Assembly (NCBI GenBank): GCA_963663995.1
Contig: OY760660.1
Location: 1,620,001 to 1,652,000, forward strand
Direction: 5' to 3'
Origin: Erysipelotrichaceae bacterium
GTDB taxonomy: Bacteria > Bacillota_I > Bacilli_A > Erysipelotrichales > Erysipelotrichaceae
Length of the DNA stretch: 32,000 bases
Translations under genes and position numbers: made by a program
Part shown: piece by piece, positions 3,068-32,000 of the stretch
Layout: each line of letters begins with the position of its first letter
Position numbering within the stretch: the first letter of the stretch is position 1
Notes under the pieces: generated by a model
Databases searched by the model: none
Told to the model about the DNA's origin: nothing
What the model saw: only the letters and a program-made list of their open reading frames with translations

Positions 3068-3077
3068 GAGGTCATCA

Positions 3078-6450: not shown

Positions 6451-6465
6451 ATGGAGGGCAATTAT

Positions 6466-7605
6466 ATGATTATTCAAAGTACAAAAGTTTATCTTGAGGA
6501 AATGTGGACAGCTGCCCAAATTGAAATTAAAGATAAGAAGATTTCAGGAATATTCCCATATAAGACAAAAGAAGTAGATGTTGATTATGGAGACAATAAA
6601 ATATACCCAGGCTTCATTGATACCCATTGTCATGGAGCACTAGGTTTTGACACAAATGATGTTGATCCTGAAGGGTTAAAGAAATGGCTTAAAGGTGCAG
6701 CGGATGAAGGTATCACAGCTTTATGTCCAACCACGATTACACAAAGTGAAGAAGTATTAACACAAGCACTCATTAATGTCGCAAGTGTTGCGAACAGTGA
6801 TTACGAAGGTGCGCGTATAGCGGGCATTCATTTTGAAGGTCCTTATCTCAATAAGAAGTTTAAAGGAGCACAACCTGAATCACACATCGTTCAAGGTACA
6901 ATTAAACAATTTGATGAGTTCTATAAAGCATCTGCTGGTTTAATTAAAGTAGTGACAATGGCGACAGAAAATGATCCTGAACATACTTTAACGAAGCACA
7001 TGAATAAGTTAGATATCGCAGTTAACATCGGACATTCAGCTTCAACTTTTGAAGAAGCGCAATTTGCTCTCGCTAACGGAGCCAGTGGATTTACCCATAC
7101 TTTTAATGGAATGAGTCCTTTTAATCACAGAGCACCAGGACTTATGGGTGCATCAATGATTATTCGTGATGGTTATTCAGAAATTATTACAGATGGAGTA
7201 CATGTCAGTTGGCCAGCCATTAATTTATTGTTTAAGGCAAAAGGTAAAGATCATGTGGTCATTATTACTGATTCAGTTCAAGCGAAAAAAATTGGAGTGG
7301 GTCAGTATGTCTTTGGTGGACAAAATATTGAAATTAAAGAAAATGGTGGTGCCTACTTAGAAAGTGGTAATTTAGCAGGAAGCACATTATTATTCAATCG
7401 AGCCCTTCAAAATGTCATCGTACATGCACAAGTTGATGAAGTCAGTGCAATAAACGCGGCTACGATTAACCCTGCAAAAGTCTTAAAACTCAATCACCGT
7501 AAAGGTTTGATTCGGGCAAATTATGATGCCGATATTGTGGTCTTAAATGATAACTATGATGTGCTTGCGACTTATGTCGAAGGTTCATGTGCATATAAAA
7601 AATAG
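6466..7605 (+). CDS. nagA: N-acetylglucosamine-6-phosphate deacetylase
   Basis: FIDTHCHGALGFD and HFEGPYL motifs. ATG 6466 has GGAGGG 7 nt upstream (the track start 6451 is itself part of that SD). It immediately follows nagB. Confidence 0.9.
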   Translation: MIIQSTKVYLEEMWTAAQIEIKDKKISGIFPYKTKEVDVDYGDNKIYPGFIDTHCHGALGFDTNDVDPEGLKKWLKGAADEGITALCPTTITQSEEVLTQALINVASVANSDYEGARIAGIHFEGPYLNKKFKGAQPESHIVQGTIKQFDEFYKASAGLIKVVTMATENDPEHTLTKHMNKLDIAVNIGHSASTFEEAQFALANGASGFTHTFNGMSPFNHRAPGLMGASMIIRDGYSEIITDGVHVSWPAINLLFKAKGKDHVVIITDSVQAKKIGVGQYVFGGQNIEIKENGGAYLESGNLAGSTLLFNRALQNVIVHAQVDEVSAINAATINPAKVLKLNHRKGLIRANYDADIVVLNDNYDVLATYVEGSCAYKK

Positions 7606-7616
7606 GACTATATAAG

Positions 7617-7650
7617 AGATTCTCATATTACAATAGTGAGAATCTTTTTT
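7617..7650 (+). terminator. Rho-independent terminator after nagA
   Basis: AGATTCTCA (7617-7625) pairs with TGAGAATCT (7637-7645), followed by TTTTT. Confidence 0.7.
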
Positions 7651-7695
7651 ATTTGTGATGTTAAGTTATTAGTTGTATTATGTGTATGTACAGTG

Positions 7696-7716
7696 CAATG
7701 CATAGTATGTGCATTG
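7696..7716 (+). promoter_or_regulatory. Inverted repeat upstream of the antitoxin gene (candidate autoregulatory operator)
   Basis: CAATGCA (7696-7702) and TGCATTG (7710-7716) are perfect reverse complements separated by 7 nt. The repeat ends 13 nt upstream of the relB/dinJ ATG. Confidence 0.35.
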
Positions 7717-7728
7717 AAAGGAGATAAA

Positions 7729-8010
7729 ATGGCTACTAAAAATGTTACTATCCGCATGGACGTTGATTTAAAAGAATCCGCAGAAAAACTGTTTAGTGAA
7801 CTTGGTTTAAATATGACGACTGCAGTAACCATGTTTATTAAACAAGCAGTAAGGGAACAAAGAATTCCGTTACCGATATCGCTTAATGTGCCTAATGAAA
7901 AAACGATAGCCGCCATTGAAGAAGGAAGAAGACTTTCGAAAGATCCAAATTCAAAAACTTATTCATCATTGGGTGAAATCATTCAAGAAATTGAGAATGA
8001 AGAGATATAG
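7729..8010 (+). CDS. Type II antitoxin, RelB/DinJ family
   Basis: MATKNVTIRMDVDLKESAEKLFSELGLNMTTAVTMFIKQAVREQRIPLPISL is a canonical DinJ ribbon-helix-helix N-terminus. AAAGGAG lies upstream of ATG 7729; the track start 7636 is an upstream extension. Confidence 0.9.
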   Translation: MATKNVTIRMDVDLKESAEKLFSELGLNMTTAVTMFIKQAVREQRIPLPISLNVPNEKTIAAIEEGRRLSKDPNSKTYSSLGEIIQEIENEEI

Positions 8011-8275
8011 CCTTGTAAAAACATCGCAGTTTAAAAAAAATCTCAAATTATCAATAAAAAGAGATAAAGATTTGTCAAAACTAGAAAAAGCAATAGATAT
8101 TCTAACTAGTGGATACACCTTACCATTTGAGTATAAAGAACACATTTTAATTGGACAATACAAAGGTATACATGAGTGTCATATTGAGAATGATTGGCTA
8201 CTCTTGTTTGAGTATGATGAAATAGAATTTCATTTAATCTTACATGGCATAGGAACACATAGTGATTTATTCTAA
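7997..8275 (+). CDS. Type II toxin, YafQ-type RelE-superfamily mRNA interferase
   Basis: MKRYSLVKTSQFKKNLKLSIKRDKD...EHILIGQYKGIHECHIENDWLLLFEYDE...GTHSDLF matches the YafQ pattern (FKKDLK, DHxLxGxxxGxRECHI, DWLLIY, GSHSxLF). ATG 7997 overlaps the antitoxin 3' end by 14 nt. Confidence 0.9.
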   Translation: MKRYSLVKTSQFKKNLKLSIKRDKDLSKLEKAIDILTSGYTLPFEYKEHILIGQYKGIHECHIENDWLLLFEYDEIEFHLILHGIGTHSDLF

Positions 8276-8299
8276 AAAGATTTTATTAGAATCTTCTTT

Positions 8300-9373
8300 T
8301 TACATGTATTTATTTATGTCGATTTTTAATTCTTGTGTAATTTGCTTAATTTCATTCATATCTTCATCATTTATAACTAAACCATTTTGTTTTACAGACT
8401 CGAAATATTCAAACTCTTTCTCGCCGTGAACATAAATTCTATCTTGGCTTTGCGATTTTTGTGAGTCTTTAAGCTCTTGAATGAAAGTATTCAACTTGTT
8501 TTGAATCAAATCAGCTGGACCAAATATCTTTGGATCAATCACCATAAAGAAATGACTTACCCCTGCATGAACATGATCTTGAATATGATTTGATGTTTTC
8601 CCAAGGGATAAGATACCGGTCAAGTATTCGACTAAGAATGAAAAGCCATAACCTTTGTGTGAACCAGTTTCTTCACTCGCTCCACCTAAAGGTAGTAAGC
8701 CAGAAATTTCTTGATAAACAGCTTTTAGGACATCACTTGGATTAGTGCTTGCTTGATAGTTTTCATCTAAACCCCAAGTATCAGGGATGGATTTATTCTC
8801 TTTTTGGGCAACTTCGATTTTACCTAGAGGAACAGTTGATGTGGCCACATCAAAGTTAAATGGAATATCACCAGTTGGAATACTAAATGCAATCGGATTG
8901 GTACCTAACATAGCTTTAACACCGTGAGTAGGAACGACTGCAGCCATTGAGTTAGTCATCGATATACCAATAAGATTGTCTTGTACAGCTTGTAAAGAAT
9001 AATAACTGGCAAAACCATAGTGATTAGAATTTCTAACAGTCGTAAGACAAATTCCAGAAACTTTGGCTTTCTCAATTGTTTGTCTCATCGCAAAATTTGA
9101 AACTAACTGACCCATACCCGCATGGCCATCGATGACACAAGAAACAGGTGATTCAAAAACAATCTCAGGTTTTGCCTCACGATCAACCAAATGATTCTTT
9201 ATTTGTTGATGATACATCATTAAACGATTAATCCCATGCGTTCTCATTCCATAAGCGTCAGACATGACTAAAGTATCAGTAATTAGTTTTGCATCATCAA
9301 CTTCAAAACCATAACTTGTATATATTTTTTCTATTAAACATCTTAAAGATTCTAAAGAATAATTATTCATCAT
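8300..9373 (-). CDS. Ldh2-family (malate/L-lactate/ureidoglycolate-type) NAD(P)H-dependent dehydrogenase
   Basis: GMRTHGINRL, NSNHYGFASYY and GTNPIAFSIP motifs, characteristic of the Ldh_2 family; 357 aa. Confidence 0.8.
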   Translation of the reverse strand: MMNNYSLESLRCLIEKIYTSYGFEVDDAKLITDTLVMSDAYGMRTHGINRLMMYHQQIKNHLVDREAKPEIVFESPVSCVIDGHAGMGQLVSNFAMRQTIEKAKVSGICLTTVRNSNHYGFASYYSLQAVQDNLIGISMTNSMAAVVPTHGVKAMLGTNPIAFSIPTGDIPFNFDVATSTVPLGKIEVAQKENKSIPDTWGLDENYQASTNPSDVLKAVYQEISGLLPLGGASEETGSHKGYGFSFLVEYLTGILSLGKTSNHIQDHVHAGVSHFFMVIDPKIFGPADLIQNKLNTFIQELKDSQKSQSQDRIYVHGEKEFEYFESVKQNGLVINDEDMNEIKQITQELKIDINKYM

Positions 9374-17392: not shown

Positions 17393-18955
17393 TTAGTTGT
17401 TCTCCTTTTTTAATAATTTATATTCTAATGAATCTACCAGTGCAAGTAAACTTGCTTCGATGATATTTGTCGAAACACCCATAGTATTCCACTCATCTTC
17501 TCCATCAGACGTTACTATTGTAACTCGAACGGTCGCATCTGTCGCTTCATTATGGTCTAAAACTCTAACAATATAGTCAGTCAGAATAACATCCTTAATT
17601 TCAGGATAGAATTCTTCTAAAACTAAACGTAAAGCTTTATCCAATGCATTAACAGGTCCATCACCTTCAGCGGAGACTAAGCGTACTTGATCGTTAATTC
17701 TAACCTTAACTGTACACAGAATATCTAAACCTAAAGTTGAGACATCACGTACTTCATAGTAAATGATATCGAAGGACGGATCAAACTTCTGTAGCAGCTT
17801 TTGAATGAGCAATTCAAGGGAAGCGGGGGCATTCTCATATTGATAGCCTTGTTGTTCCATATCCTTGATGGTCTCAATCAATTTCTTAGCTGTTTCAGAT
17901 TCTTTGTCCAAGCTCGGATCGTATTTATTTAAGAGTTCCATAATCGCTCCGCGGCCAGAAACTTCTGAAATAATAATATTTCTTTCATTACCCACCACAT
18001 CAGGTGAGCAATGTTCGAAAGATGAACTTGCTTTTAGGACACCATCGATGTGCATGCCACCTTTGTGGGCAAAAGCATTTTTACCAACATAAGGCATACC
18101 GTTATCTAAGTGAACATTGGCATGTTCAGCAATTTGTCGACATGTATGAGTTAAGTTTTTAAGTTGATCATCACTGATGACTTTAATTCCTTTTTTAACT
18201 TGTAAATTAGCAATGACATTACTAAGGTTGCAGTTACCTGTTCTTTCCCCAAAGCCATTGAGTACACCCTGTACATGAATAGCTCCATTATCGATTCCGG
18301 CATGGGCGTTCGCCACCCCAAAGCCAATATCGTTATGTGTATGGATACCAATTAAAGCATCTGGTAAAGCTGTGCAAACCGCTTTTGTTATTTCAGCCAC
18401 TTCTTCAGGGAAACAACCACCATTTGTTTCACAGAGAACCAAACGTGTTGCGCCAGCATTGTGAGCAGCTTTCAAACATTCAATCGCATATTCCGGATTG
18501 TTTTTGTAACCATCAAAGAAATGTTCAGCATCGAAGAAGACTTCTTTGTCATGTTCGCGTAAGTATTGAATACTATCGGCAATCATCTTTAAGTTTTCAT
18601 CAAGAGTCGTGCGGATAACATCAGTCACATGAAAGTCCCATGACTTACCAAAGATGGTGATGATATCACAGAAAGCATTGGCTAACTTATTTAAGTTATC
18701 ATCATCTTTTGCGCTAATACCTTTACGACGTGTGCTACCAAAGGCAACAATCTTCGCATTTTTAAGGACAGTATTTTCTAAGGCATCAAAGAATTCAATG
18801 TCTTTTGGATTTGAACCAGGATTACCAGCTTCAATATAATCAATCCCTAATTCATCTAATAGATGAACAGTTCTTAATTTATCTCTAAAGCTAAAGGAAA
18901 CATTTCTTGCTTGAGCGCCATCACGTAAGGTTGTGTCAAACAACTCTATCTTCAT
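17393..18955 (-). CDS. cimA: Citramalate synthase-like LeuA-family paralog
   Basis: 520-aa DRE-TIM aldolase (FDTTLRDGAQA, IGIHTHNDIGFGVANA) with a C-terminal LeuA-dimer-type domain. It sits next to a separate canonical leuA. The N-terminal pattern MKIELFDTTLRDGAQARNVSFSFRDKL...IEAGNPGSNPKD is what I recognise from the bacterial citramalate-synthase clade. The assignment is by recognition, not by search. Confidence 0.75.
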   Translation of the reverse strand: MKIELFDTTLRDGAQARNVSFSFRDKLRTVHLLDELGIDYIEAGNPGSNPKDIEFFDALENTVLKNAKIVAFGSTRRKGISAKDDDNLNKLANAFCDIITIFGKSWDFHVTDVIRTTLDENLKMIADSIQYLREHDKEVFFDAEHFFDGYKNNPEYAIECLKAAHNAGATRLVLCETNGGCFPEEVAEITKAVCTALPDALIGIHTHNDIGFGVANAHAGIDNGAIHVQGVLNGFGERTGNCNLSNVIANLQVKKGIKVISDDQLKNLTHTCRQIAEHANVHLDNGMPYVGKNAFAHKGGMHIDGVLKASSSFEHCSPDVVGNERNIIISEVSGRGAIMELLNKYDPSLDKESETAKKLIETIKDMEQQGYQYENAPASLELLIQKLLQKFDPSFDIIYYEVRDVSTLGLDILCTVKVRINDQVRLVSAEGDGPVNALDKALRLVLEEFYPEIKDVILTDYIVRVLDHNEATDATVRVTIVTSDGEDEWNTMGVSTNIIEASLLALVDSLEYKLLKKENN

Positions 18956-20448
18956 GATTGAGTACTTCCAATCGCAAGTAGATAAGCATCTATACTTGCT
19001 TCAACAATATCGCTACTTACAGCTCGTCCATAGTATTGTTTCTTTTCAAACTCGATTGTTATGTCAACTTTTGCGAGTGATTCAACATCATCGGTAACGG
19101 TTGATAATTGATAGGAATGCAGTGGATATTGTCCTTTATAGACTTTAGATATAGCGTTGTATAAAGCATCAACTGATCCAACACCTTTACCTTTTTCTGA
19201 AATAATATCACCATCAATATTTAAACTTATTTCAGCCAGAGATTCATCATTTTCACGTCTAGCGCTATAAGAAATCACTTTTGTTTCAGTTGAAGAATCA
19301 ATGGATCCATTAACGATAACCACTAAATCTTTATCGTGGATTTCTTTCTTCGTATCAGCTAAACGTTTGAATTGTTCAAACATTTGATCAATTCTAGTAT
19401 TGTCGTAACTAATGCCAAGTTTATTGATTCGATCAACAAAGGCATGACGACCTGATAAGGCTCCTAGTACGATTTCATTTTCAGGTAAACCAATCGATTG
19501 AGGACTCATGATTTCATAAGTTTCACGATTGGCTAGTACACCATGTTGATGGATACCAGATTCATGTGAGAAAGCATTCGCTCCCACAATAGCTTTATTC
19601 GGTTGAACATTAATACCAGATAAATATTGAACAAGCTGTGAAGTGTTATAAATTTGTTCAGTAGTAATGTTTGTGTACAAATCAGAATAGTAATCTTTAC
19701 GTGTTTTAAGGGCCATCACAACTTCTTCTAAAGCAACATTTCCAGCTCTTTCACCAATACCATTGATGGAACCTTCAATTTGTGTTGCCCCAGCATGGAC
19801 AGCAGCCAATGAATTCGCTACAGCCATTCCTAAGTCGTTATGACAATGCACTGAAATTTCGACATTTTCTATGCCTTCAACATGTGCGATTAAATATTTC
19901 ATTAAGTCTGCATATTCATTAGGTGTTACATAACCAACGGTATCCGGTACATTTAAGACAGTTGCGCCAGCTTTAATGACTGCACTAAAGATTTCGACTA
20001 AGAAATCACGATCACTACGAGTTGCATCTTCAGCTGAAAATTCAACATCATCACATAGTGTTTTTGCATAAGCAACTGATTCAATCGCTTTCGCTAAAAC
20101 TTGTTCCTTATTCATTTTGAGTTTGAATTCCATATGAATAGGGGACGTTGCTATAAAAACATGAATTCGATGTTTTGGTGCAGCTTTAATGGCTTCATAA
20201 GCTGTATCGATATCCTTTTTAATGGATCTCGCTAATGAACATAAAGTTGATGTCTTGAGGACTTTAGACATTTCGACTAAAGCTTCATAGCTTTTTGGTG
20301 AGGCAATCGCAAATCCACCTTCGATGACATCAACACCGAGTTTTTCTAACTGTAAAGCAATCTTTACTTTATCTTCCGTTGTGAAGTTAACACGAGGTGT
20401 TTGTTCACCATCACGAAGTGTTGTATCAAATAATTTAACTTGTCTCAT
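18952..20448 (-). CDS. leuA: 2-isopropylmalate synthase
   Basis: FDTTLRDGEQTP and VHCHNDLGMAVANSLAAV motifs; 498 aa with a regulatory C-terminal domain. Its TGA overlaps the cimA ATG (ATGA). Confidence 0.9.
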   Translation of the reverse strand: MRQVKLFDTTLRDGEQTPRVNFTTEDKVKIALQLEKLGVDVIEGGFAIASPKSYEALVEMSKVLKTSTLCSLARSIKKDIDTAYEAIKAAPKHRIHVFIATSPIHMEFKLKMNKEQVLAKAIESVAYAKTLCDDVEFSAEDATRSDRDFLVEIFSAVIKAGATVLNVPDTVGYVTPNEYADLMKYLIAHVEGIENVEISVHCHNDLGMAVANSLAAVHAGATQIEGSINGIGERAGNVALEEVVMALKTRKDYYSDLYTNITTEQIYNTSQLVQYLSGINVQPNKAIVGANAFSHESGIHQHGVLANRETYEIMSPQSIGLPENEIVLGALSGRHAFVDRINKLGISYDNTRIDQMFEQFKRLADTKKEIHDKDLVVIVNGSIDSSTETKVISYSARRENDESLAEISLNIDGDIISEKGKGVGSVDALYNAISKVYKGQYPLHSYQLSTVTDDVESLAKVDITIEFEKKQYYGRAVSSDIVEASIDAYLLAIGSTQS

Positions 20449-22853: not shown

Positions 22854-23675
22854 TTAATTTTCATCCTTAATAATGAATTGAATTGCTACACAACCAGGAC
22901 CACCTTGTGTAATCATCACTGGACTCAACAACAATGTTTGAATATCAATGCCATCGATCTTCTCTTTAATGGCTTCAACAAACTGTGAAGCAACAGAAGG
23001 GTTATCAGCATGTGAGATATAGACTTTGAACTTTTCGCTCACATTGTTTTTCTTCATATCCTCAATGATTGAGTCAATGGCTTGTTTCCATGAACGAGCA
23101 ACACCAAATTTCTCTAGTTTTTCCATTCCTGGCTTGTGATAAACAATAGGTTTAATTTTGAGTAATCCACTCATTAGGGCTGCTATGGTTGAAAGTCTGC
23201 CATTTCTTTTTAAGAAATCAAAATCTACAGGAATTAAATAAGATTTACAATCTTCTAGTACTTTATCAAGTCTAGCTCTTAATTCACTATGATCTAATTT
23301 ATCGGATAGTCGTGCGGCAAGTTCAACCACATATTGTTGAGTACCTGCCAAAGTCTTCGAATTAAAGATGGTCATATTTGGATAATCAGTTTGTAATCCT
23401 GCAGCACTGACATATGTACTACTTAATCCTGATGTCATCGCAATGTAGAAACCATCTTTATTTTTATCAAAGGTTTCCATCACATCGCCAATGGCTGGTT
23501 GACTTGATTGTGGTATACCACCCGCAATTTCTTCAATATATTTCTTTGTATCTATTTCAAAGTAATCTCGATAGTTCTTTCCATTTATCTCTACTTGTAA
23601 TGGAATAAGATCAACATTTAATTCTTCTGCTCTTTCACGTGAAAGCATTGAACCTGTGTCAGTAATTATTTTCAT
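22854..23675 (-). CDS. DegV-family fatty-acid-binding protein
   Basis: MKIITDTGSMLS N-terminus and overall DegV/EDD-fold pattern. ATG 23675 has GAGG 6 nt upstream; the track's GTG at 23693 is less likely. Confidence 0.9.
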   Translation of the reverse strand: MKIITDTGSMLSRERAEELNVDLIPLQVEINGKNYRDYFEIDTKKYIEEIAGGIPQSSQPAIGDVMETFDKNKDGFYIAMTSGLSSTYVSAAGLQTDYPNMTIFNSKTLAGTQQYVVELAARLSDKLDHSELRARLDKVLEDCKSYLIPVDFDFLKRNGRLSTIAALMSGLLKIKPIVYHKPGMEKLEKFGVARSWKQAIDSIIEDMKKNNVSEKFKVYISHADNPSVASQFVEAIKEKIDGIDIQTLLLSPVMITQGGPGCVAIQFIIKDEN

Positions 23676-23987
23676 ATTTAACCTCGCGTACACTTATTAT
23701 ATACAAATATGCCATTAATTTGTGAATAATTCCTTATTTAAAGATAGTGGCGTATATTTAACTTTCGTAAATGCATTTTAAAAAAAATTGGTAGTCAAAA
23801 CTAAAATTATTACTATGATATAATAATAAAGATTAATTTACTAAAAGTAGTATCCATCAGCGTCTTTGTAAGACTGATTATATTAAAATATATTGTCAAT
23901 GATTATTAATGAAATAATCTCGTGTCTATGTTTACTATATTTAGTTATTGGTTTTGATAAACACACAAAAAATAGATAGGTTAAACG

Positions 23988-24416
23988 ATGAAAAATAAAA
24001 GTGGAATGACATTAGTTGAAATGGTAATCGCAATTGGATTATTAGGTATAATATCAGTCTCAATTTTTCCGTCATTAGTGGTTTTGTCTAAAATGAACTA
24101 TGTATCAAAGGAAAACTTAAGCTCTAATTACATTGCGCAAGATGTAAGTGAAAGATTATATAACTATAGTCAAACAATAGCTGAAGATGATCTAGTGAAT
24201 ACTTTAATAAATAATCAAGGATATTCGTTATCAAGCAATACTGGAAATAGTTATTTTTTGTCTAAGGATGAAGAAGATTTTAAGATTGATTTAGAAATAA
24301 ACTTAAGTGATGCATCAACTCATTTTGTAAAAGTCAATGTGTCTGTATCCTCACTAAATGAAGCGATTGATAATAAGAGCAGTCAAATAGAATCGATATT
24401 GCGTTTTGGTAATTAA
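23988..24416 (+). CDS. Prepilin-type minor pilin (class III signal peptide)
   Basis: MKNKSG/MTLVEMVIAIGLLGIISVSIF: a short basic leader, Gly at -1, Glu at +5 and a ~20-aa hydrophobic helix. It is first in a three-gene cluster with 2-nt and 10-nt gaps. Confidence 0.8.
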   Translation: MKNKSGMTLVEMVIAIGLLGIISVSIFPSLVVLSKMNYVSKENLSSNYIAQDVSERLYNYSQTIAEDDLVNTLINNQGYSLSSNTGNSYFLSKDEEDFKIDLEINLSDASTHFVKVNVSVSSLNEAIDNKSSQIESILRFGN

Positions 24417-24418
24417 AT

Positions 24419-24832
24419 ATGAAAATGGATCGAAAAGGTTTTACCTTAATTGAGTTAGTGATTGTGATCGCAATTGTTGGAATTGTTTCTTTGGGAATTG
24501 TTAACATTGTTTCTTATTCAATGAATATTGTTTCAAAAGAAACCGTAAATATTGATCAGCAGACAGATGTACGTATTGTGCTTGTCAATTTTGAAAAAGA
24601 TTTAAGAAGGTCTAATCAAGAAGTCACTAAAGTAGATGATTGTGTCTATGTAAATAGCATAAGTTATTGTTTGGATAACCACTCACTTACAAGAGATGAT
24701 ATCGTATTAGCAAATAATATTGAAGTCTTTGAAGTTTCAGTTTCTACAACTTTTATTGATATCAATGTAGTATCTATTGCTGATAAGGAGGGGAACACAT
24801 CAGCTGCAGATACACGAATATATTTAAGATAG
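24419..24832 (+). CDS. Prepilin-type minor pilin (PilW/GspJ/ComGF-like)
   Basis: MKMDRKG/FTLIELVIVIAIVGIVSLGIV is the canonical G/FTLIE cleavage-methylation motif, followed by FEKDLRRS. An alternative ATG at 24425 gives a 5-aa leader. Confidence 0.85.
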   Translation: MKMDRKGFTLIELVIVIAIVGIVSLGIVNIVSYSMNIVSKETVNIDQQTDVRIVLVNFEKDLRRSNQEVTKVDDCVYVNSISYCLDNHSLTRDDIVLANNIEVFEVSVSTTFIDINVVSIADKEGNTSAADTRIYLR

Positions 24833-24842
24833 GATAAAGCGT

Positions 24843-26453
24843 ATGAAAACATTAAAAAATAAACAGGGAATGGCACTTTTAACTGTCATGATTATCCTAT
24901 TAGTCATGGTAACCTTATTGGGTGCGTTGCTTATTTCATCAAAAAATAATTTGGACAGATCTATAGATACACAAGAACATACAACGACTTATTATGCATC
25001 TGAAGCAGGTATGACGATGGTCGCTAGTGAATTTGAAGAGAAATTAATTGCTTTGAGTGAACAAAGTCCTTCGCTTAGTGCCAGTGCATTTATGACCGCT
25101 TTAAATTCATATGTAAGTAGTCAAGGCAATCAAGATATTGAATTACAAGAGAATAATGGTGATATTCCAAAAGCGAGTGTAAGCATTGTCTATACAGGGG
25201 TAGAAGATGGATATGAAAGCTTTGAAATCACATCAGTTGGACATTATGGTGGATATGACAGAATTTTAGTGACTCAATATAAATTTGAGTATATTGAAGG
25301 CGAATCATCAACTGCTTTTCAGGTTGATAAAGCTGTAATGGTTAAAGAGAATATTGAATTGTCTGGAAGTGCTGAAGTTACAGGTGCACCAGTGTCTACA
25401 TACCAAACGACAAAAAACACAATTGATCTTCAATGGTCAACAAAAGTTCCTGCAATTGAATTGGATCCTAGTTTATTTAATAGCAATGATGAACTTATAA
25501 AAACTGATATTTTCAATGATTTGAAAAATATCAATAACAAAATAACTGAAGGTGGATTGGATGCAGTTAAACCATTAGCTAATATTTTTGAATTTCCGCC
25601 AATAGTAATGCCTACTTATCCAGATAAATCAACACTCGCAAAACTTCCTGCTTATTCAATAAAACTACCATGGGGAAGTGATTATTTTCAGTTAGTTTAT
25701 AACGATGGACGATTCATCCAAAATAGTTGGAATATAGATGGATCAGTTTATCGAATACCAGATGCAGCTTCGTGGTATTATGTCCCAGAATTTATTATAA
25801 GTGCAGGGAATGACTTTAGCATTGATGTAGGGAATACAGACAAATTCTTAGTTGTTGATAAGCTACAACTTAATGGACAAGTTAGCATTATTGGTGAAGG
25901 TACACTAACAATATTTGTAACCGGTAATACAGAAAAAACAGCAAGCAAATCTGATCAAAGTCGAGTAGAGCTTAACTATACAAGTTCTAATCATGTTGGA
26001 GCGATAGATCATCCTGAGAAGTTTATTGTTTATGTTAATGAAATGTATTATAAATCAGGTAATAAAACATATCCAATAAATATCTCAATTGGTGGATCAG
26101 CTAAATATTATATGTCATTAATGGGTGCGAATTTTAACTATGAGACTGGTGGAAGCGGATCTCTATATGGCTATGTTGTGACCGGTGGTGAAAGTGTAAA
26201 AATTAATGGTGCTGGAACGGTTGATACTACTTTATTTTATGTCCCTAATGCTGAATTTGAGATTGCTGGATCAGGATATATAAATGGGGCAGTTATAGCG
26301 AAAAGTTTTAATGGCACAGGAGCAAGTCGAGTTAATTTTAGTGCTGAAGCTTTTGATAATTTCCCATTTGAAGTGTTAGATCCAATTACAGGTGGTAGTA
26401 CTAGTTCAACACCTTCATTAACAATCATCAAAGGCTCAACTATTGAACAATAG
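24843..26453 (+). CDS. Large PilX/GspK-like modular minor pilin (536 aa, no Glu5)
   Basis: MKTLKNKQG/MALLTVMIILLVMVTLLGALLISS followed by ...YYASEAGMTMV (PilX_N-like). The C-terminal Gly/Ser/Asn-rich strand repeats end in LFYVPNAEFEIAGSGYINGAVIAKSFNGTGASRVNF. AGGA lies 8 nt upstream. Confidence 0.75.
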   Translation: MKTLKNKQGMALLTVMIILLVMVTLLGALLISSKNNLDRSIDTQEHTTTYYASEAGMTMVASEFEEKLIALSEQSPSLSASAFMTALNSYVSSQGNQDIELQENNGDIPKASVSIVYTGVEDGYESFEITSVGHYGGYDRILVTQYKFEYIEGESSTAFQVDKAVMVKENIELSGSAEVTGAPVSTYQTTKNTIDLQWSTKVPAIELDPSLFNSNDELIKTDIFNDLKNINNKITEGGLDAVKPLANIFEFPPIVMPTYPDKSTLAKLPAYSIKLPWGSDYFQLVYNDGRFIQNSWNIDGSVYRIPDAASWYYVPEFIISAGNDFSIDVGNTDKFLVVDKLQLNGQVSIIGEGTLTIFVTGNTEKTASKSDQSRVELNYTSSNHVGAIDHPEKFIVYVNEMYYKSGNKTYPINISIGGSAKYYMSLMGANFNYETGGSGSLYGYVVTGGESVKINGAGTVDTTLFYVPNAEFEIAGSGYINGAVIAKSFNGTGASRVNFSAEAFDNFPFEVLDPITGGSTSSTPSLTIIKGSTIEQ

Positions 26454-26575
26454 TTTGTTTTGAATTATTAATAATTTTCCTTAACATAAGAATTGATTAT
26501 TAATAAACGAATTCACTTAATAAAATAAAGATTATATTAAATGAACTTAATCGATAATAAGCGTATATTAAAGTT

Positions 26576-27160
26576 ATGGAAAACATTAAAGTAACAGCCC
26601 TAATAAACCATTACCCACAATGGTCAGAAGAATTTAAAGTACTAAGATCTTATATCAATACATTTGAATTAAATGAAGAAGTTAAATGGATGCAACCATG
26701 TTTTACAAAAAACAAGAAAAACATCGTTCTATTACATGGCTTTAAAGATTACTGTGCCATTCTATTCTTTAAAGGTGCACTCATTAACGACACACATAAT
26801 AAGCTCATTCAACAAACAGAAAACGTCCAAGCAGGACGTCAGTTAAGATTTAAAACGATGCAAGAAATCTTAGACCAAAAAGAAGTAATTCTCGATTATG
26901 TTAAACAAGAAATCGAAATAGAAGATAAAGGTCTAGAAGTCGAAAAAGTTGAACGTAAACCAATCGAAATACCTGTTGAATTAAAGGAAGTCCTAGACAA
27001 AGATAACTCATATAATGAAGCATTCAATAAACTAACACCAGGTCGTCAAAGAGCATGGATATTGCACATAGCAGATGCGAAACAATCAGCTACTAAGTAT
27101 GCTCGTATAGAGAAAATGAGAGACAAAGTCTATAATGGTAAAGGACCATTGGAGAGATAA
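26576..27160 (+). CDS. YdeI/DUF1801-family protein (YdhG-like N-domain + YdeI/OmpD-associated C-domain)
   Basis: EVKWMQPCFTKNKKNIVLLHGFKDYCAILFFKG (DUF1801 pattern) and PVELKEVLDKDNSYNEAFNKLTPGRQRAWILHIADAKQSATKYARIEKMRDKV (YdeI C-terminal pattern). Confidence 0.75.
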   Translation: MENIKVTALINHYPQWSEEFKVLRSYINTFELNEEVKWMQPCFTKNKKNIVLLHGFKDYCAILFFKGALINDTHNKLIQQTENVQAGRQLRFKTMQEILDQKEVILDYVKQEIEIEDKGLEVEKVERKPIEIPVELKEVLDKDNSYNEAFNKLTPGRQRAWILHIADAKQSATKYARIEKMRDKVYNGKGPLER

Positions 27161-27184
27161 TCACAAAACAAAAAGATGACAAAT

Positions 27185-27220
27185 AAAAACCCACATTCTT
27201 TGAAAGGAATGTGGGTTTTT
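27185..27220 (+). terminator. Rho-independent terminator after the ydeI-like gene
   Basis: CCCACATTC (27190-27198) pairs with GAATGTGGG (27207-27215), flanked by AAAAA and TTTTT, so it is potentially bidirectional. Confidence 0.8.
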
Positions 27221-27232
27221 GAAGCGCTTTAA

Positions 27233-27324
27233 AATATCGTGTGGGCGATTTTAGGGGGGTATTCAAATATCGTGTGGGAACTCTATAAGATATTGTGTGG
27301 GTGGGCTTTAAGGTTTGGTGTGGG
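27233..27324. repeat. Four direct copies of a (A)ATAT(C/T)GTGTGGG-type motif at the left end of the IS
   Basis: AATATCGTGTGGG occurs at 27233-27245 and again at 27266-27278 (identical). GATATTGTGTGGG is at 27289-27301 and the degenerate GGTTTGGTGTGGG at 27312-27324. Copy ends are spaced 33, 23 and 23 nt apart. Confidence 0.6.
27283..27302. repeat. Left terminal inverted repeat of the ISL3-family element
   Basis: CTATAAGATATTGTGTGGGT is the perfect reverse complement of 28738-28757. Confidence 0.7.
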
Positions 27325-27390
27325 AAAATAAAAAACCTTCGTGTTAATTTAGAGTTACGAGCTTTAAAAATAACACGAAGAAGGAATCTA

Positions 27391-28714
27391 ATGATCACAC
27401 AGCCCGATTTTATCACAGCCATGTTTAATGTAGAACTAGATGAAATAGAAACTCTAGATCGTTTAAACTGGACAATACTTTTCATTATCATATTCGACTC
27501 AAACTCACAAAACACACCTGTCAAGTGTGTGGTGCGAATGCCATATCTCATGGAACCAAAGAAAGACTTATTCATCATCCCAATATTATTGGTTTTGATG
27601 GTGTTATTCATTATCACGCTAGGCGTTATATTTGTAAGGATTGTCATCAAACATTTTTCGAAACCAATCCTTTTTCTTATCCAGGTTTTAATAATAGTTA
27701 CGCACTAATGAATCGAGTGATGCAATAGCTCGGAACACTCGATCTTAGTTATAAACGAATCGCGGAAGATAATCGTATTTCTGTAACGACTGTCCAATTA
27801 TATTTAGATAGTCATGTCGCAATCCCACGAACTTCTTTACCAGAGAATCTAGGGATTGATGAATTGCACTCGAAGATGGTTTATCGTGATTCTGCCTATT
27901 TATGTGCGCTTATCGACAATGAGAATAGATATCCTGTTGATATCTTAAATTCTCGTTCTAAAGCTCAATTAAATCGTCATTTCAGCCAGTATTCAAAGGC
28001 TGAAAGAGATAGAGTGAAATATGTGACCATTGATATTTGGGAACCCTATAAAGATGTCGCATTACGTCAAATTAAGAATTGTAGAGTAGCGGTTGATCCT
28101 TTTCATGTGGTCAAGAATCTATCTTTTGCCTTTACTAAAATACGAATCAATATTATGAATCAACACGCTCCTGGTTCAAGTGCGTACTACCTTCTTAAGA
28201 AGTGGCACAAATTACTCGATTTAAAAGAAGTGAACCTAGATAATCTACCTCAATATAATCCTTTGATCATAAATTAACCAAAAGACAAATTCAAGAAATG
28301 ATATTTAGTATCTCTGATAAACTCTTAGATGCTTATAATCTTAAAACAGCTTATCAATTCTTTAATGACACAGCTTCTTATGAAAATGCAGGTCCTTGGT
28401 TAGAGAGTCTTATTTATAAATTTCAAAATTCTGGGATTGTTGAATATGATGAATTTACTCGTATGTTAATTAATTGGAAACCTGAAATTATCAATTCTTT
28501 TCAACGTCCTCATAACGATCGTAAACAATCAAATGCTTTAGCTGAAAATATAAATAGTCACCTAAGAGCTTATATCTCTTTAGTTCGTGGTTCTCAAAAT
28601 TTTACTCGCTTTAGAAAAAGAGTTCTTTATGCGTTAAACTCAAAAATTCACTACGCTATCTCAAATCGAATTACCTCTGATAAACAAAATAAAAACCCAA
28701 AGAAAAAAGAGTAG
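27391..28714 (+). pseudogene. ISL3-family transposase, disrupted
   Basis: AAGGA RBS plus ATG 27391 (MITQPDFITAMFNVELDEIETLDR). The frame switches near 27460-27470 into ...KLDNTFHYHIRLKLTKHTCQVCGANAISHG...RRYICKDCHQTFFE (zf-ISL3). An in-frame TAG lies at 27726-27728. The frame then continues as LGIDELHSK...VTIDIWEPYKD...VAVDPFHVVKNL (DDE_Tnp_ISL3). A second frameshift near 28256-28262 leads into FDHKLTKRQIQEM...NALAENINSHLRAYISLVRGSQNFTRFRKRVLYALN. Confidence 0.8.
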
Positions 28715-28737
28715 AAATTTCAATTTTTCTACTCTTT

Positions 28738-28757
28738 ACCCACACAATATCTTATAG
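28738..28757. repeat. Right terminal inverted repeat of the ISL3-family element
   Basis: ACCCACACAATATCTTATAG, 23 nt after the transposase stop, is the perfect complement of 27283-27302. Confidence 0.7.
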
Positions 28758-28833
28758 CGTGTTTTTTTAAAACCACACGTTATTTTATATTGCTCTTATT
28801 TTGATAAGAAATCCTTTTAAACAAAAAGACTTA

Positions 28834-29178
28834 TTATTCTACAATGTCTTCTGGAGCAAAATCAGGCAAACCGTATGTTTTAGAACCGTAGGTACATGTG
28901 AACACAGTAATCGCACCATCAGCAACAGTTACATCACATTCAGAATCATCTCCATAAGTATAATCATCATCTGTAATGGCTGGGTCAGCTGTTACGTACT
29001 CCATGGCATATTGGCTATACAAAGCTCTTGAGTTAGCTGAATCTTTTGCTTCAGTTGCTCTTGAAATATAATTTGTAATACTTGGAATCAAGATAGCTGC
29101 TAAGATAGCTAAGATAGCGATAACAACGATTAATTCAATAAGCGTAAACCCTTTTTTGTTTTTTAATAATTTTTTCAT
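28834..29178 (-). CDS. Type IV major-type pilin (prepilin, 114 aa)
   Basis: MKKLLKNKKG/FTLIELIVVIAILAILAAILIPSITNYISRA: canonical leader, Gly-1, Phe+1 and Glu+5. Two Cys residues (SECDVTVADGAITVFTC) could form a D-region-like disulfide. A strong GGGAG RBS lies 8 nt upstream. Confidence 0.85.
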   Translation of the reverse strand: MKKLLKNKKGFTLIELIVVIAILAILAAILIPSITNYISRATEAKDSANSRALYSQYAMEYVTADPAITDDDYTYGDDSECDVTVADGAITVFTCTYGSKTYGLPDFAPEDIVE

Positions 29179-29203
29179 AAGTTTTCTCCCTATATTTAAT
29201 TAA

Positions 29204-29232
29204 ATTTTCTATCAATAAATTTGTTATGTCAA
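29204..29232 (-). promoter_or_regulatory. Candidate sigma-A-type promoter for the major pilin gene
   Basis: On the minus strand, TTGACA (29232-29227), a 17-nt spacer and GAAAAT (29209-29204), about 25 nt upstream of the ATG. The -10 matches only 4 of 6 positions. Confidence 0.3.
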
Positions 29233-29337
29233 TGAATAATCGACATTGTGTGAAAAAAGTATACTTTAGTACCATAATATAGATTTATTAGGCAATTATA
29301 TTAAATAAAATTTGCAAAATAAGTGTAAATAATACGA

Positions 29338-29651
29338 TCACTCTTTTATAAAATTGTTGGATGCTCGATAGGTTCCAATGTCCCACGTACAATAGAATGA
29401 AGCGATTCCAGTTGGTGCTTTGAAATTAGAAATTAAGACATAAGCATCATTTTTAGTCGCATCTGCTAAAGCGTATTCAGTGTAGATAACTCTTGTATTT
29501 GCCATGTCTCTTGTTTCTTTAGCTTGATCGATATATCAAGTTACACTAGGTATTAATATACTCGATAGGATTGAGAGAATTGCAATCACTACAATCAATT
29601 CTATAAGGGTAAATCCCTCTTTATTTTTTAAGGTTTTTTTAGGCTTGTCAT
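29338..29651 (-). pseudogene. Pilin paralog with a homopolymer frameshift and an in-frame TGA
   Basis: My minus-strand translation gives ...KKTLKNKEG/FTLIELIVVIAILSILSSILIPSVT*YIDQAKETRDMANTRVIYTEYALADATKNDAYVLISNFKAPTGIASFYCTWDIGTYRASNNFIKE*. The only ATG (29651, MTSLKK) is out of frame across an A7 run (plus-strand T7 at 29634-29640), and one extra A would restore the frame. The in-frame TGA is at 29538-29536, where the intact paralog has Asn. Confidence 0.7.
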
Positions 29652-29689
29652 AGAAACTATTATAGCCTAAATGCACTAGATAGTGTGAA

Positions 29690-30742
29690 TTACATTCCTA
29701 TTAATCTTTGCATTAAACCTGGATCAGATGCGTAAACATAGGCTGTATCTTTATCGATAATTTCTAACTTAACTAAATTGGCTAGACTATGTTCTAAGGT
29801 TGTCATGCCCAATTTTTGTCCTGTTTGAATCACTGAATTAATCTGAACGATTTTGTTTTCACGGATCATGTTTCCAACCGCATCTGTATTAAGTAGTATT
29901 TCATGTGCAGCCACTCGTCCACTTTTATCAGTTTTAGGTAGTAGTGTTTGTGAGACAACGGCTTTTAAACTTGTTGAAAGTTGAGATCTTACTTGATTTT
30001 GTTGATGGGGTTCAAATGAATCAATGACTCTGTTAATTGTTGATGCAGCTGAGGTGGTGTGTAATGTGCCGAAGACTAAGTGTCCTGTTTCAGCAGCTGT
30101 TAAGGCAAGTGCGATACTTTCGTGATCGCGCATTTCACCGACTAAGATGACATCTGGATCTTCACGTAGGGCGGATCTTAATCCATCCTTAAAGCTATGT
30201 ACATCTCGTTCAATTTCACGTTGGTTAATTAAACAATTCTTTTCTTTGTGGATGTATTCGATCGGATCTTCGAGGGTTAATATATGTGCTTTTTCATTGG
30301 TGTTGATATAGTCAATCATAGCGGCTAAAGTTGTTGATTTGCCTGAACCTGTTGGACCTGTAACTATGATGATGCCTTTGTTTGACAAGGATAATGACTT
30401 TAGGACTTCAGGAAGTTTAAGTTCTTCAATGGATGGAATATGATTGTTTAAGAGTCTTATCGCAATTGCGGGAACTTGTTTTTGTCTATAAATGTTTAAA
30501 CGATAACGATTTCCATCTTTATCACTATAGGCAGTATCAATATCATATCCATTTTGGAAGTGTTCAAACTGATCATCCGATGTCATTAATTTTATGAAAT
30601 TCAGTAAATCACTTTGACTTAATACGTTTTCATCCATGATGGTTAAATCACCAACTTGTCGAGTATAGACAGGCTTATTGGCGATTAAATGGATGTCAGA
30701 AGCTTTATTTTTCTGGGCGTAAGCTAAGATTTCTTCTATCAT
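29690..30742 (-). CDS. pilT: Type IV pilus retraction ATPase PilT
   Basis: 350 aa. Walker A GPTGSGKST, Asp/His boxes, and the PilT-type C-terminal block AHEILLNTDAVGNMIRENKIVQI (counterpart of the AIRNLIREGK signature). An AGGAGG RBS is present. Confidence 0.9.
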   Translation of the reverse strand: MIEEILAYAQKNKASDIHLIANKPVYTRQVGDLTIMDENVLSQSDLLNFIKLMTSDDQFEHFQNGYDIDTAYSDKDGNRYRLNIYRQKQVPAIAIRLLNNHIPSIEELKLPEVLKSLSLSNKGIIIVTGPTGSGKSTTLAAMIDYINTNEKAHILTLEDPIEYIHKEKNCLINQREIERDVHSFKDGLRSALREDPDVILVGEMRDHESIALALTAAETGHLVFGTLHTTSAASTINRVIDSFEPHQQNQVRSQLSTSLKAVVSQTLLPKTDKSGRVAAHEILLNTDAVGNMIRENKIVQINSVIQTGQKLGMTTLEHSLANLVKLEIIDKDTAYVYASDPGLMQRLIGM

Positions 30743-30753
30743 TTAAGTCCTCC

Positions 30754-32000
30754 TTAATCAACGGTGTAGAGTAGACGTATGGCTTCATCAATAGTTGTTT
30801 GACCTGCATTGACTAAATCCAATACTTCTTCTCTTAACATTCTCATTTTCTTTTCTGCAGCATAATTTCGTAGTTCTTCCATAGAAGCACCTTTAGAAAC
30901 CATGTCTTGAATTTTCTTATCGACTAACATCATTTCAAAGACCGCTGTACGACCATTATAACCCGTGTTATTGCAGTCAGAACATCCGCGACCATAGGAT
31001 GTTTCCTTTAATTCAGTTGATAGTAACATATTCTCTTCATCCGTAACTTTATGAACGGTTTTACATTTAGGACATACTTTTTTAACTAAACGTTGTGAGA
31101 TGACACATTTAACAGATGATGCGACAAGGAAGGGTTCAACACCCATATCTACTAAACGAACAATCGTTGATAAAGCGTCATTGGTATGGACAGTAGACAA
31201 GACTAAGTGACCAGTGATCGCAGCACGAATTGCAATTTCAGCTGTTTCACCATCACGAATTTCCCCAAGCATAATGATATCTGGGTCTTGACGCAAGATA
31301 GATCTAAGACCTGAGGCAAAGGTTAAACCAGATCTTGGATTGACTTGTACTTGAGTAATCCCATCAAACTTACGTTCAATTGGATCTTCAACTGTGACAA
31401 TCGCTTTTTTCACATCATTAATCTTCGCTAACATGGAATACAAAGTAGTGGTTTTACCAGAACCTGTAGGACCAGTGACTAAAATAATTCCGTGAGGCAA
31501 ACGAACCGCTTTAGAGATAATCTCTTCACTTTGTGGAGATAAGCCTAATGAGGATAGTTTATAAGATATATTTCGATCGGCACCTAATAAACGCAAAACA
31601 AGCTTTTCTCCATAGGGTGTAGGGATAGATGATACACGAATATCGATTTTTAACCCATCGGCCGCAAATTGGAAAGAACCATCTTGAGGAACACGTTTTT
31701 CCGCAATATTCATTCCTGAAATGATTTTAATACGTGAACTGATATGTTGATGTACTTCCGACGTAAAGTCAGTTTGGGCTTGTAAATCACCATCAACCCT
31801 AAAGCGTACATGGGTTGTATGTTCAGCAGGTTCAATATGAATATCTGATGCATTTTGATGATAAGCATCCATGATTAAGTTATTAACCAGTTTTACCACA
31901 GGTGCAGAGTCAATACTTGCAGCTAACGCGTCATCACTCGTTATATGGTTATCGAGATTTAAATCACTTTGAATATCACCTAAGATTTCATCATTTGTAC
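30754..32000 (-). CDS. pilB: Type IV pilus assembly ATPase PilB/GspE family (5'-partial, continues beyond window)
   Basis: The frame stays open to the right window edge (...DSAPVVKLVNNLIMDAYHQNASDIHIEP), so the track's GTG at 31899 is not the start. It has Walker A GPTGSGKTT and the tetracysteine motif CPKC...CSDC typical of GspE/PilB. Confidence 0.9.
   Translation of the reverse strand, partial: TNDEILGDIQSDLNLDNHITSDDALAASIDSAPVVKLVNNLIMDAYHQNASDIHIEPAEHTTHVRFRVDGDLQAQTDFTSEVHQHISSRIKIISGMNIAEKRVPQDGSFQFAADGLKIDIRVSSIPTPYGEKLVLRLLGADRNISYKLSSLGLSPQSEEIISKAVRLPHGIILVTGPTGSGKTTTLYSMLAKINDVKKAIVTVEDPIERKFDGITQVQVNPRSGLTFASGLRSILRQDPDIIMLGEIRDGETAEIAIRAAITGHLVLSTVHTNDALSTIVRLVDMGVEPFLVASSVKCVISQRLVKKVCPKCKTVHKVTDEENMLLSTELKETSYGRGCSDCNNTGYNGRTAVFEMMLVDKKIQDMVSKGASMEELRNYAAEKKMRMLREEVLDLVNAGQTTIDEAIRLLYTVD

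Follow-up and report, generated by a model that had tools for sequence, protein, structure and literature searches.

In pilins of the PilK class, a C-terminal β-strand of ~10 residues completes the pilin sheet and licenses PilI-J-K assembly (Ellison et al. 2026, PMC13533445). This strand is supplied in trans by PilC/PilY1 or provided in cis, as in GspK and CpaL; the latter is composed of an N-terminal pilin-like domain, a middle module of ~470 residues located on the tip and a C-terminal strand acting in cis (PMC13533445). PilK homologues of filaments devoid of tip adhesins often have a large insertion before the donor strand, and loss of the glutamate at position +5 of the mature pilin (Glu5) is a hallmark of the capping subunit (PMC13533445). 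Beyond Streptococcus sanguinis and Clostridioides, the tip subunit capping Gram-positive type IV pili, and its attachment, have been poorly studied. Here we describe a gene encoding a putative tip subunit of this kind (referred to below as the big pilin), found in a 32,000-nucleotide (nt) stretch of DNA of an Erysipelotrichaceae bacterium (GenBank assembly GCA_963663995.1, contig OY760660.1, positions 1,620,001 to 1,652,000 of the forward strand). The whole stretch is termed the window, and coordinates refer to it unless stated otherwise.

Proteins of comparable architecture have been described in other bacteria. In ComZ of Thermus thermophilus, which resembles GspK, a β-solenoid is inserted just ahead of the last strand, after the penultimate one; the protein binds DNA as well as PilA2, the neighbouring pilin, has been argued to be a tip subunit and, according to its authors, is not a predicted PilD substrate (PMC6561018). 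Ice-binding proteins were reported as fold neighbours of the ComZ solenoid (PMC6561018). The same solenoid insertion is carried by all cyanobacterial PilX homologues, and this insertion was proposed to form a "tip plug" replacing PilY1 (bioRxiv 10.64898/2026.02.12.705559). PilB and PilC of S. sanguinis are described as Gram-positive type IVa pilus (T4aP) subunits with a bulky function-adding module (PMC8179133).

The big pilin probably caps a monoderm T4aP as its apical minor pilin (PilK/PilX/GspK class), and carries an apparently inserted DUF7305 β-solenoid that would serve as a plug and probable adhesin. Its open reading frame (ORF; 24843..26453, + strand), delimited from the ORF list and the translation, starts with ATG at 24843, terminates with the stop codon at 26451-26453 and encodes 536 amino acids (aa). 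Fourteen close homologues (E-values from 1e-96 to 1e-237) were found, all from metagenome-assembled genomes of Erysipelotrichaceae and all (14/14) with a precomputed match to DUF7305 (PF23981). An exhaustive profile search returned 1,863 cluster representatives at E≤1e-3, including 218 at E≤1e-30; the top matches are mostly ~450-600 aa long, and many align over most of the query. Because of the close homologues, the large family and a gene order kept in 10 related genomes, the ORF is considered real and not a chance frame. No match to the protein was obtained with phmmer among PDB sequences, megablast yielded no match among plasmids, and a promoter/terminator scan of positions 23600-29800 gave signals no richer than those in shuffled sequence.

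A nearly identical copy of this DNA is present in a public contig (ena:ERZ21862665:ctg3621l, designated L015), which differs from the window by two 1-nt indels and zero mismatches over 4.4 kb. At positions 6705-8316 of this contig, one extra C breaks the gene into calls of 177 and 366 aa, and the database therefore contains only a 366-aa fragment (P0001, 99% identical). Several neighbouring genes of L015 are split too, and these interruptions look like homopolymer-type errors of long-read assembly. The intact reading of the gene in the window matches the family consensus.

The structure of the full-length protein was modelled with AlphaFold2 using a 14-sequence alignment, with a mean predicted local distance difference test score (pLDDT) of 82.9. 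The model comprises, in order, a helix (residues 7-72), a second helix (80-94), a sheet (96-151), a β-rich region (160-500), a disordered segment (505-522) and a strand (525-535). Conservation was assessed with an alignment of 82 diverse relatives of the big pilin (A2). Two of its columns are invariant, i.e. Pro468, within a PNA motif, and the penultimate residue, Glu535; nearly invariant are Gly9, Tyr51, Glu54, Gly56, Ser131, Gly133, Arg140 and several glycines of the solenoid.

The N-terminus of the big pilin, MKTLKNKQG/MALLTVMIILLVMVTLLGALLISS, contains a prepilin-type leader (residues 1-9; 24843..24869, +) ending in Gly-1. This glycine, Gly9, is kept in 98% of the 82 family members. Residue +5, counted from the residue after Gly9, is Thr, and Glu is absent from this position in 71/71 and 164/165 parsed family members, with one possible Glu among the 165. 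Gly-1 is the residue after which a prepilin peptidase would be expected to cut, and PilD, whose gene is present in the loci of relatives (L005 and Evansella), may cleave the leader after Gly9. The leader is followed by the α1 helix (residues 10-72; 24870..25058, +), composed of a hydrophobic N-terminal part (α1N) and a conserved YYxSEAG motif (residues 50-56) that is typical of the end of PilX_N domains. The pilin head (residues 73-155; 25059..25307, +), delimited on the basis of the model and the alignment, contains helix 80-94 and a sheet built of strands 96-100, 110-121, 124-135 and 138-151; S131, G133 and R140 are located here. No long helix is present in the AlphaFold model beyond residue 94.

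Most of these features had been noticed in a first-pass annotation of the sequence, made without database searches. The ORF, its 536-aa length and all of the peptides quoted there were found (those rich in Gly/Ser/Asn at residues 341-362 and 417-499), and the translation bears out the prepilin leader, the hydrophobic helix and the Thr in place of Glu at +5. The peptide YYASEAGMTMV, placed "about 35" residues further on, occupies residues 50-60, 41 residues after Gly9, so the estimate was approximately right. The statement that no further hydrophobic helix follows is in line with the model.

The central and largest part of the big pilin is a predicted β-solenoid module (residues ~160-500; 25320..26342, +), which is acidic, contains the PNA motif with the invariant P468 and is devoid of Cys. 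Residues 155-505 folded alone gave a pLDDT of 91 and a predicted template modelling (TM) score, pTM, of 0.88, with the same strands as in the full model; therefore, the central part of the protein and its Gly-rich last third make up one autonomous solenoid domain. In a Foldseek search of the PDB, the first match of the full model was ComZ (6QVI; E 4.6e-8, probability 1.0, ~630 columns), followed by ice-binding proteins, the fold neighbours also reported for the ComZ solenoid (PMC6561018). The solenoid alone had no PDB match at E≤1e-3. Its best match was the ice-binding protein 9LHR (E 3.8e-3, probability 0.96, TM 0.24-0.35), and the TM-score of its match to 3LYC, a helix of the DUF2807 type, was up to 0.45. 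The Pfam family of ice-binding proteins (DUF3494) does not match the big pilin. The solenoid may plausibly determine the specificity of the pilus.

The solenoid is followed by a linker (residues 501-524, FDNFPFEVLDPITGGSTSS...; 26343..26414, +) that is predicted to be disordered, with pLDDT <50 at residues 505-522; its P508 is 91% conserved in the family alignment. The protein terminates with a β-strand, LTIIKGSTIEQ (residues 525-535; 26415..26450, +), defined by DSSP and by conservation (mean pLDDT 82 over residues 531-536), which we propose to be a "C-β" strand acting in cis. A Glu occurs within the last five residues of 171/177 family proteins, in 112 of them at position -2, as E535 does here. 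Judging from the model, the solenoid is thus placed between the pilin sheet and the terminal strand, and is apparently an insertion, not a C-terminal appendage.

Pfam DUF7305 matches residues 312-460 (25776..26222, +) with 29.0 bits versus a gathering score of 27. Within the A2 alignment, DUF7305 was detected in 81/82 members (best E 7.9e-20), PilX_N (PF14341) in 54/82 (best E 1e-14), DUF2807 in 13/82 and pAdhesive_15, described as an "ice-binding-like adhesive domain", in 9/82; in the big pilin itself the DUF2807 match is below threshold. Family members with names are all from Bacillaceae (Evansella, Litchfieldia, Aquibacillus and Salirhabdus) and are called "PilX N-terminal domain-containing pilus assembly protein" or "DUF7305 domain-containing protein" in NCBI/RefSeq. 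A homologue search with the A2 profile brought up largely the close relatives already found, and DUF7305 is mentioned in no paper of the searched literature library. The strict motif YxPNA...G...G...A was considered as a family signature and dropped, as it occurs in 65/177 family proteins and not in ComZ.

The first-pass annotation had assigned the protein to the PilX/GspK class of minor pilins lacking Glu5, which agrees with the conserved Gly-1, the missing +5 Glu and the occurrence of PilX_N among the relatives. Its suggestions to search for DUF7305-type and PilX_N domains fared differently: the former domain was found in the big pilin and in nearly all relatives, while the latter was detected in two-thirds of the relatives and not in the big pilin (E<1). 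The predicted β-helix-like nature of the Gly-rich module was recovered in both the full and the solenoid-only AlphaFold models, and the full model also contains a long N-terminal helix and a small pilin sheet. Its division into an unrecognised central part of ~250 aa and a last ~200 aa has to be abandoned in favour of one domain of ~340 residues. The module is also more than a C-terminal graft of the S. sanguinis kind, as it is itself followed by the linker and the conserved strand with Glu535, in agreement with the design of ComZ, cyanobacterial PilX and CpaL (PMC6561018; 10.64898/2026.02.12.705559; PMC13533445). The kinship to TadG, proposed from the YxPNA motif, was not upheld, given the PilB/PilT/PilC/PilM machinery encoded with these pilins and the lack of any Tad-family Pfam match in the big pilin at E≤1.

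ComZ was also the first PDB match of the family sequence profile, with a marginal E of 0.028 and a colinear alignment over residues 45-189. The aligned parts include the α1 motif (AYYxAEAG in the profile versus AFYAAEAG in ComZ, the latter also aligning with the YYxSEAG stretch of the big pilin), an ItSxG strand and the beginning of the solenoid; the pilin head is the only region of the big pilin that aligns with ComZ in profile comparisons. For Pfam and hhalign analyses the ComZ sequence (residues 8-192, 202-338 and 342-526) was rebuilt from printed PDB alignments. PilX_N was found at its N-terminus, and no DUF7305 match was obtained at E≤10. Both proteins have a pilin domain without canonical Glu5 and a solenoid of ~340-380 residues before the last strand, both are encoded in a minor-pilin cluster beside a small partner pilin, and both carry a Glu in the last strand (in ComZ the matched sequence ends with ...VLSYERR at residue 526 of a 534-residue chain). 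However, the host of ComZ is a diderm possessing a secretin and that of the big pilin a monoderm, and DNA binding was shown for ComZ (Lys98/Lys233). The solenoids of the two proteins are not demonstrably homologous, and the proteins are related in architecture rather than closely.

The ComZ-like genes of two Thermus-type contigs (L012, positions 1622-3329, and L014, positions 6001-7841) were each called as three ORFs. Therefore, searches with ComZ as a query returned only N-terminal PilX_N fragments, and the solenoid pieces had no Pfam annotation.

Similar comparisons were made with the remaining systems. Cyanobacterial PilX shares with the big pilin family the β-solenoid and the lack of PilY1 in the respective genomes or loci; cyanobacteria, however, are diderms with several PilX paralogues (of competence and motility pili), whereas a single copy occurs here in a monoderm T4aP locus, and the two were compared by architecture. 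As in GspK, PilK and PilX, Glu5 is missing, the gene is third in the I-J-K order and a terminal strand of ~10 residues is conserved. The extra domain of GspK is α-helical and lies in the middle of the sheet, while the module of the big pilin is a solenoid preceding the last strand; the PilK/PilX proteins of proteobacteria are small, and PilC/PilY1 donates the strand to them in trans, whereas the big pilin is large and has its own candidate strand. CpaL and TadG also combine a pilin-like N-terminus, a large middle module and a strand at the extreme C-terminus, but they belong to Tad machinery, whereas PilB, PilT, PilC, PilM, PilN, PilO and PilD are encoded in loci of the window type. In the modular pilins of S. 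sanguinis, Glu5 is retained and the extra module comes after a complete pilin fold, unlike in the big pilin, which lacks Glu5 and has a conserved strand after the module. PilC/PilY1 adhesins possess a Sec signal peptide and a C-terminal β-propeller; the big pilin has a pilin-type N-terminus, no propeller was seen in its model or fold matches, and it is analogous to these adhesins only in the proposed plug and donor-strand role. Overall, several defining features place the protein in the PilK/PilX class; it would work like ComZ, cyanobacterial PilX and CpaL, and it is no TadG, PilY1 or modular pilin of the S. sanguinis type.

Two small pilin genes are located directly upstream of the big pilin gene. 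Minor pilin A (23988..24416, +; 142 aa, MKNKSG/MTLVE) and minor pilin B (24419..24832, +; 137 aa, MKMDRKG/FTLIE) both have Glu at +5 and were recognized by the Pfam N_methyl model, and pilin B also by TIGR02532. Pilin A, a candidate member of the PilI/PilV/GspI/ComGE class, matches ComGE (E 1.3e-5) and PilV (E 1.7e-3, residues 5-122), in all cases below cut-off. Pilin B is a candidate PilJ/PilW/GspJ/ComGF-class protein, and its ComGF and GspJ matches, also below cut-off, reach residue 73. PDB profile searches with both pilins gave matches only to the N-terminal helices of major pilins. Because of the weak matches extending beyond the helix and of the gene order, the sequences suggest that pilin A, pilin B and the big pilin are PilI-, PilJ- and PilK-like subunits, respectively. 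In the pilin B family (alignment A4), Gly-1 and Glu+5 are invariant and a C-terminal IYLR motif is almost invariant. This family also has two nearly invariant cysteines (C75 and C84), in a monoderm minor pilin whose big tip partner has no Cys.

The arrangement of these genes is conserved. In syntenic Erysipelotrichaceae loci, pilin B is directly upstream of the big gene in 9/10 cases and pilin A directly upstream of pilin B in 8/10; where the contig is long enough, the big gene is followed by pilC-pilM-pilN-pilO-(pilD)-pilB-pilT and a major pilin gene. The locus L005 encodes, in order, two pilins, the big protein, PilC, PilM, PilN, a PilO-like protein, PilD (on the opposite strand), PilB, PilT and a major pilin; the stop codon of its big gene overlaps the pilC start, and it contains no PilY1-like gene. 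In Evansella cellulosilytica (L016) a pilin A-type gene lies directly upstream of a pilin B-type gene, and these two small pilin genes and a PilX_N+DUF7305 gene are divergent from pilB-pilT-pilC-pilin-pilD-pilM. Two small pilin genes also precede the big gene in L018, and in L017 a single called pilin gene is followed by an uncalled gap of ~450 nt, the big gene and then pilC-pilM-...-pilB-pilT-pilin. The first-pass annotation had advised a check of the co-occurrence with pilin genes and pilT; the big gene was found beside pilin genes and near pilT in the window, in Erysipelotrichaceae and in distant loci.

Positions 1-2067 of L017 contain genes for a pilin of 497 aa, which has both an N_methyl and a VWA domain, and for an N_methyl protein of 492 aa. 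These proteins resemble the modular pilin PilB of S. sanguinis; therefore, some Bacillota have distinct modular pilins in addition to a solenoid tip cap.

From the features of the sequence, its family, the order of the genes and the predicted fold, all of which were observed, we infer PilD cleavage, a tip location, strand addition in cis and an adhesive or plug role for the big pilin. In the proposed mechanism, PilD would cut the protein after Gly9, and the α1 helix lacking Glu5 would set it at the very top of the filament, since no subunit must dock above it. Together with the PilI-like and PilJ-like pilins it would form an initiation complex of the GspI-J-K type, which would prime PilB-driven polymerisation of the major pilin and stay at the tip during PilT-driven retraction. 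The strand 525-535, with Glu535, would fold back in cis and complete the pilin sheet; it may thus be the "β-strand addition" licensing signal that comes in trans from PilC/PilY1 in Gram-negative pili and would be built in, as in GspK, CpaL and ComZ. The DUF7305 solenoid of ~340 residues would then be displayed on the tip as a plug and probable adhesin in place of a PilY1-type adhesin, which is missing from these loci.

In the analyzed genome the pilus locus has been rearranged. The big pilin gene is followed by a DUF1801/OmdA gene (26576-27160) and by a decayed transposase of the ISL3 family (27525..28714, +), represented by three ORFs with a Zn_ribbon_ISL3 and two DDE_Tnp_ISL3 pieces. Compared with the gene order in relatives, the rearrangement splitting the locus has its junction at the ISL3 remnant. 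The same DUF1801 junction is present in L015, so the rearrangement does not stem from an error in the assembly of the window. Beyond it, on the opposite strand, there is a 114-aa major pilin (28834..29178, -; MKKLLKNKKG/FTLIE; N_methyl E 1.9e-10, with N-terminal matches of the PilA/GspG type), orthologous to the pilin encoded after pilT in relatives. The next genes encode the 350-aa retraction ATPase PilT (29690..30742, -; T2SSE E 4.7e-50), which is 57-60% identical to the PilT proteins of relatives, and the extension ATPase PilB (30754..32000, -; T2SSE E 8.3e-129), whose frame continues beyond the window on the right; the stretch inside it aligns with residues 146-561 of the L005 PilB.

Between the major pilin and pilT genes, a second, disrupted paralogue of the major pilin (29338..29689, -) was recognized by reading of the sequence and by tblastn with the L005 pilin (29637-29350, 47% identity); the ORF named orf55 matches the C-termini of pilins in relatives. 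The ATG of this gene is one base out of frame in an A7 run (A8 would give MTSLKKTLKNKEGFTLIE), and there is an in-frame TGA between ...IPSVT and YIDQAKE. It could be a pseudogene, contain a slippage-prone (phase-variable) tract or reflect a sequencing error. Reading of the TGA with genetic code 4 or 25 was rejected, as the other genes all read normally with table 11.

Several observations weigh against the assignment of the big pilin as the apical subunit of a working pilus. The global TM-score of the full model to ComZ is only 0.23, the solenoid-only match to ComZ has an E of 0.07-0.15 (probability ~0.2, TM 0.25), and hhalign to the rebuilt ComZ gave 52% probability over 30 columns, covering the pilin strands only. 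At its N-terminus, the protein is not matched by Pfam PilX_N at E<1, and the NCBIfam GspK N-terminal match (residues 8-62) is weak, with an E of 3.5e-4 and 20 bits versus a cut-off of 130. The small pilins are candidate PilI and PilJ proteins, classed by sub-threshold matches and gene order, and strand 525-535 would have to pair with the pilin sheet and not with the solenoid. Finally, the pilB-pilT-pilin block lies in the reverse orientation to that in every related genome, a paralogue of the major pilin carries disruptions, and the window lacks pilC, pilM, pilN, pilO and pilD.

The likeness to ComZ raises the question of whether the big pilin is its functional equivalent, i.e. a DNA receptor on the tip of a retractile pilus used in natural transformation. 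ComZ is the closest solved structure of the full model and heads the profile search, the architecture is shared down to the terminal strand ending with Glu and the adjacent partner pilin, and the presence of PilT makes retraction possible. However, ComZ is basic (isoelectric point, pI, 8.4) and has 10 Cys, whereas the mature big pilin is acidic (pI 4.4; solenoid pI 4.7; family median 4.9) and has none; DUF7305 was not detected in ComZ, hhalign aligned the pilin strands only, and the solenoid-only fold match to ComZ is weak. No competence genes were found in the window, and DNA uptake in Bacillota usually proceeds via ComG pili. Owing to the different charge and the lack of solenoid homology, the receptor function of ComZ is not carried over to the big pilin, and we regard such a role as unlikely. 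It is still more improbable, to the point of being far-fetched, that the solenoid is a tip-displayed polysaccharide lyase or hydrolase of the tailspike/pectinase type degrading matrix or host glycans. β-Helices are common among glycan-degrading enzymes, and weak fold matches to the tailspike of Klebsiella phage K2-2, a pectin methylesterase and a "putative pectinase" (3LYC) were obtained, but all of these have E>0.1, and only ice-binding proteins scored better. Gly, Pro and hydrophobic residues make up most of the best-conserved positions, no cluster of conserved Asp, Glu, Lys, Arg or His lies within the solenoid among the 82 members, and the Pfam families involved (DUF7305, DUF2807 and pAdhesive_15) are either adhesin-type or uncharacterised.

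The failure of the N-terminus to match the N_methyl and PilX_N models, and the report that ComZ is not a predicted PilD substrate (PMC6561018), would also fit a protein that is no filament subunit, but an uncleaved signal-anchor surface protein or an assembly factor of the pilus base. Against this stand the 98% conservation of Gly-1, the PilX_N helix pattern in 54/82 relatives, the loss of Glu5 that marks capping subunits (PMC13533445) and the strictly third position of the gene after pilins with Glu5, in the GspI-J-K order, in both Erysipelotrichaceae and Bacillaceae; this explanation thus has little likelihood. An equally small chance is given to the view that the gene is intact while the pilus system is decaying in this genome, leaving the protein without a current role. 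The inversion of the pilB-pilT-pilin block next to the decayed ISL3 element, the machinery genes missing from the window and the pilin paralogue with a frameshift and a stop codon speak for decay, but the three minor pilin genes, the major pilin gene and pilT are intact, and the pilB frame is open to the window edge. After a simple inversion, pilD-pilO-pilN-pilM-pilC would lie just past base 32000. Moreover, the minor-pilin trio of Evansella is also on the strand opposite to the machinery genes, and a split locus is therefore compatible with function.

If the big pilin is the apical subunit, as we consider probable, the family shows that many Bacillota use the design of ComZ and cyanobacterial PilX, i.e. 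a cap that lacks Glu5, contains a solenoid and brings a terminal strand of its own, with no separate PilY1-type adhesin. It also links the uncharacterised Pfam domain DUF7305 to a concrete, though proposed, role. For the source organism, it predicts the occupant of the pilus tip, and the system is of a known kind. The family already bears a RefSeq name, and both the architecture and the logic behind it have been published; new are the placing of the Bacillota DUF7305 proteins in the tip-cap framework and the invariant penultimate Glu. As a speculation to which we attach rather low likelihood, the PilX_N-DUF7305 proteins of Bacillota might be PilK and PilY1 in one, with the terminal Glu (Glu535; YERR in ComZ) as the key contact of the cis strand, forming a buried salt bridge to Arg140 of the pilin sheet or a contact with the N-terminal amine of the PilJ-like pilin in replacement of Glu5, and with the acidic solenoid as a lineage-specific adhesin for a non-DNA ligand. 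Were this true, the system would offer a minimal three-gene monoderm model, in which licensing and tip adhesion are separable by simple truncations.

The rest of the window is occupied by housekeeping genes (an ilv/leu operon, nagA/nagB and GH1). Two adjacent genes encoding HMGL-like synthases of 520 and 498 aa, overlapping by 4 bases, were identified at the head of the ilv/leu cluster (17393-20448, -); they probably encode a citramalate synthase/isopropylmalate synthase pair and are unrelated to the big pilin. Among metabolic genes, an ORF with a RelB-antitoxin domain (7636-8010, +) is overlapped by a 119-aa ORF downstream (7916-8275), an arrangement that suggests a small toxin-antitoxin pair at 7636-8275.

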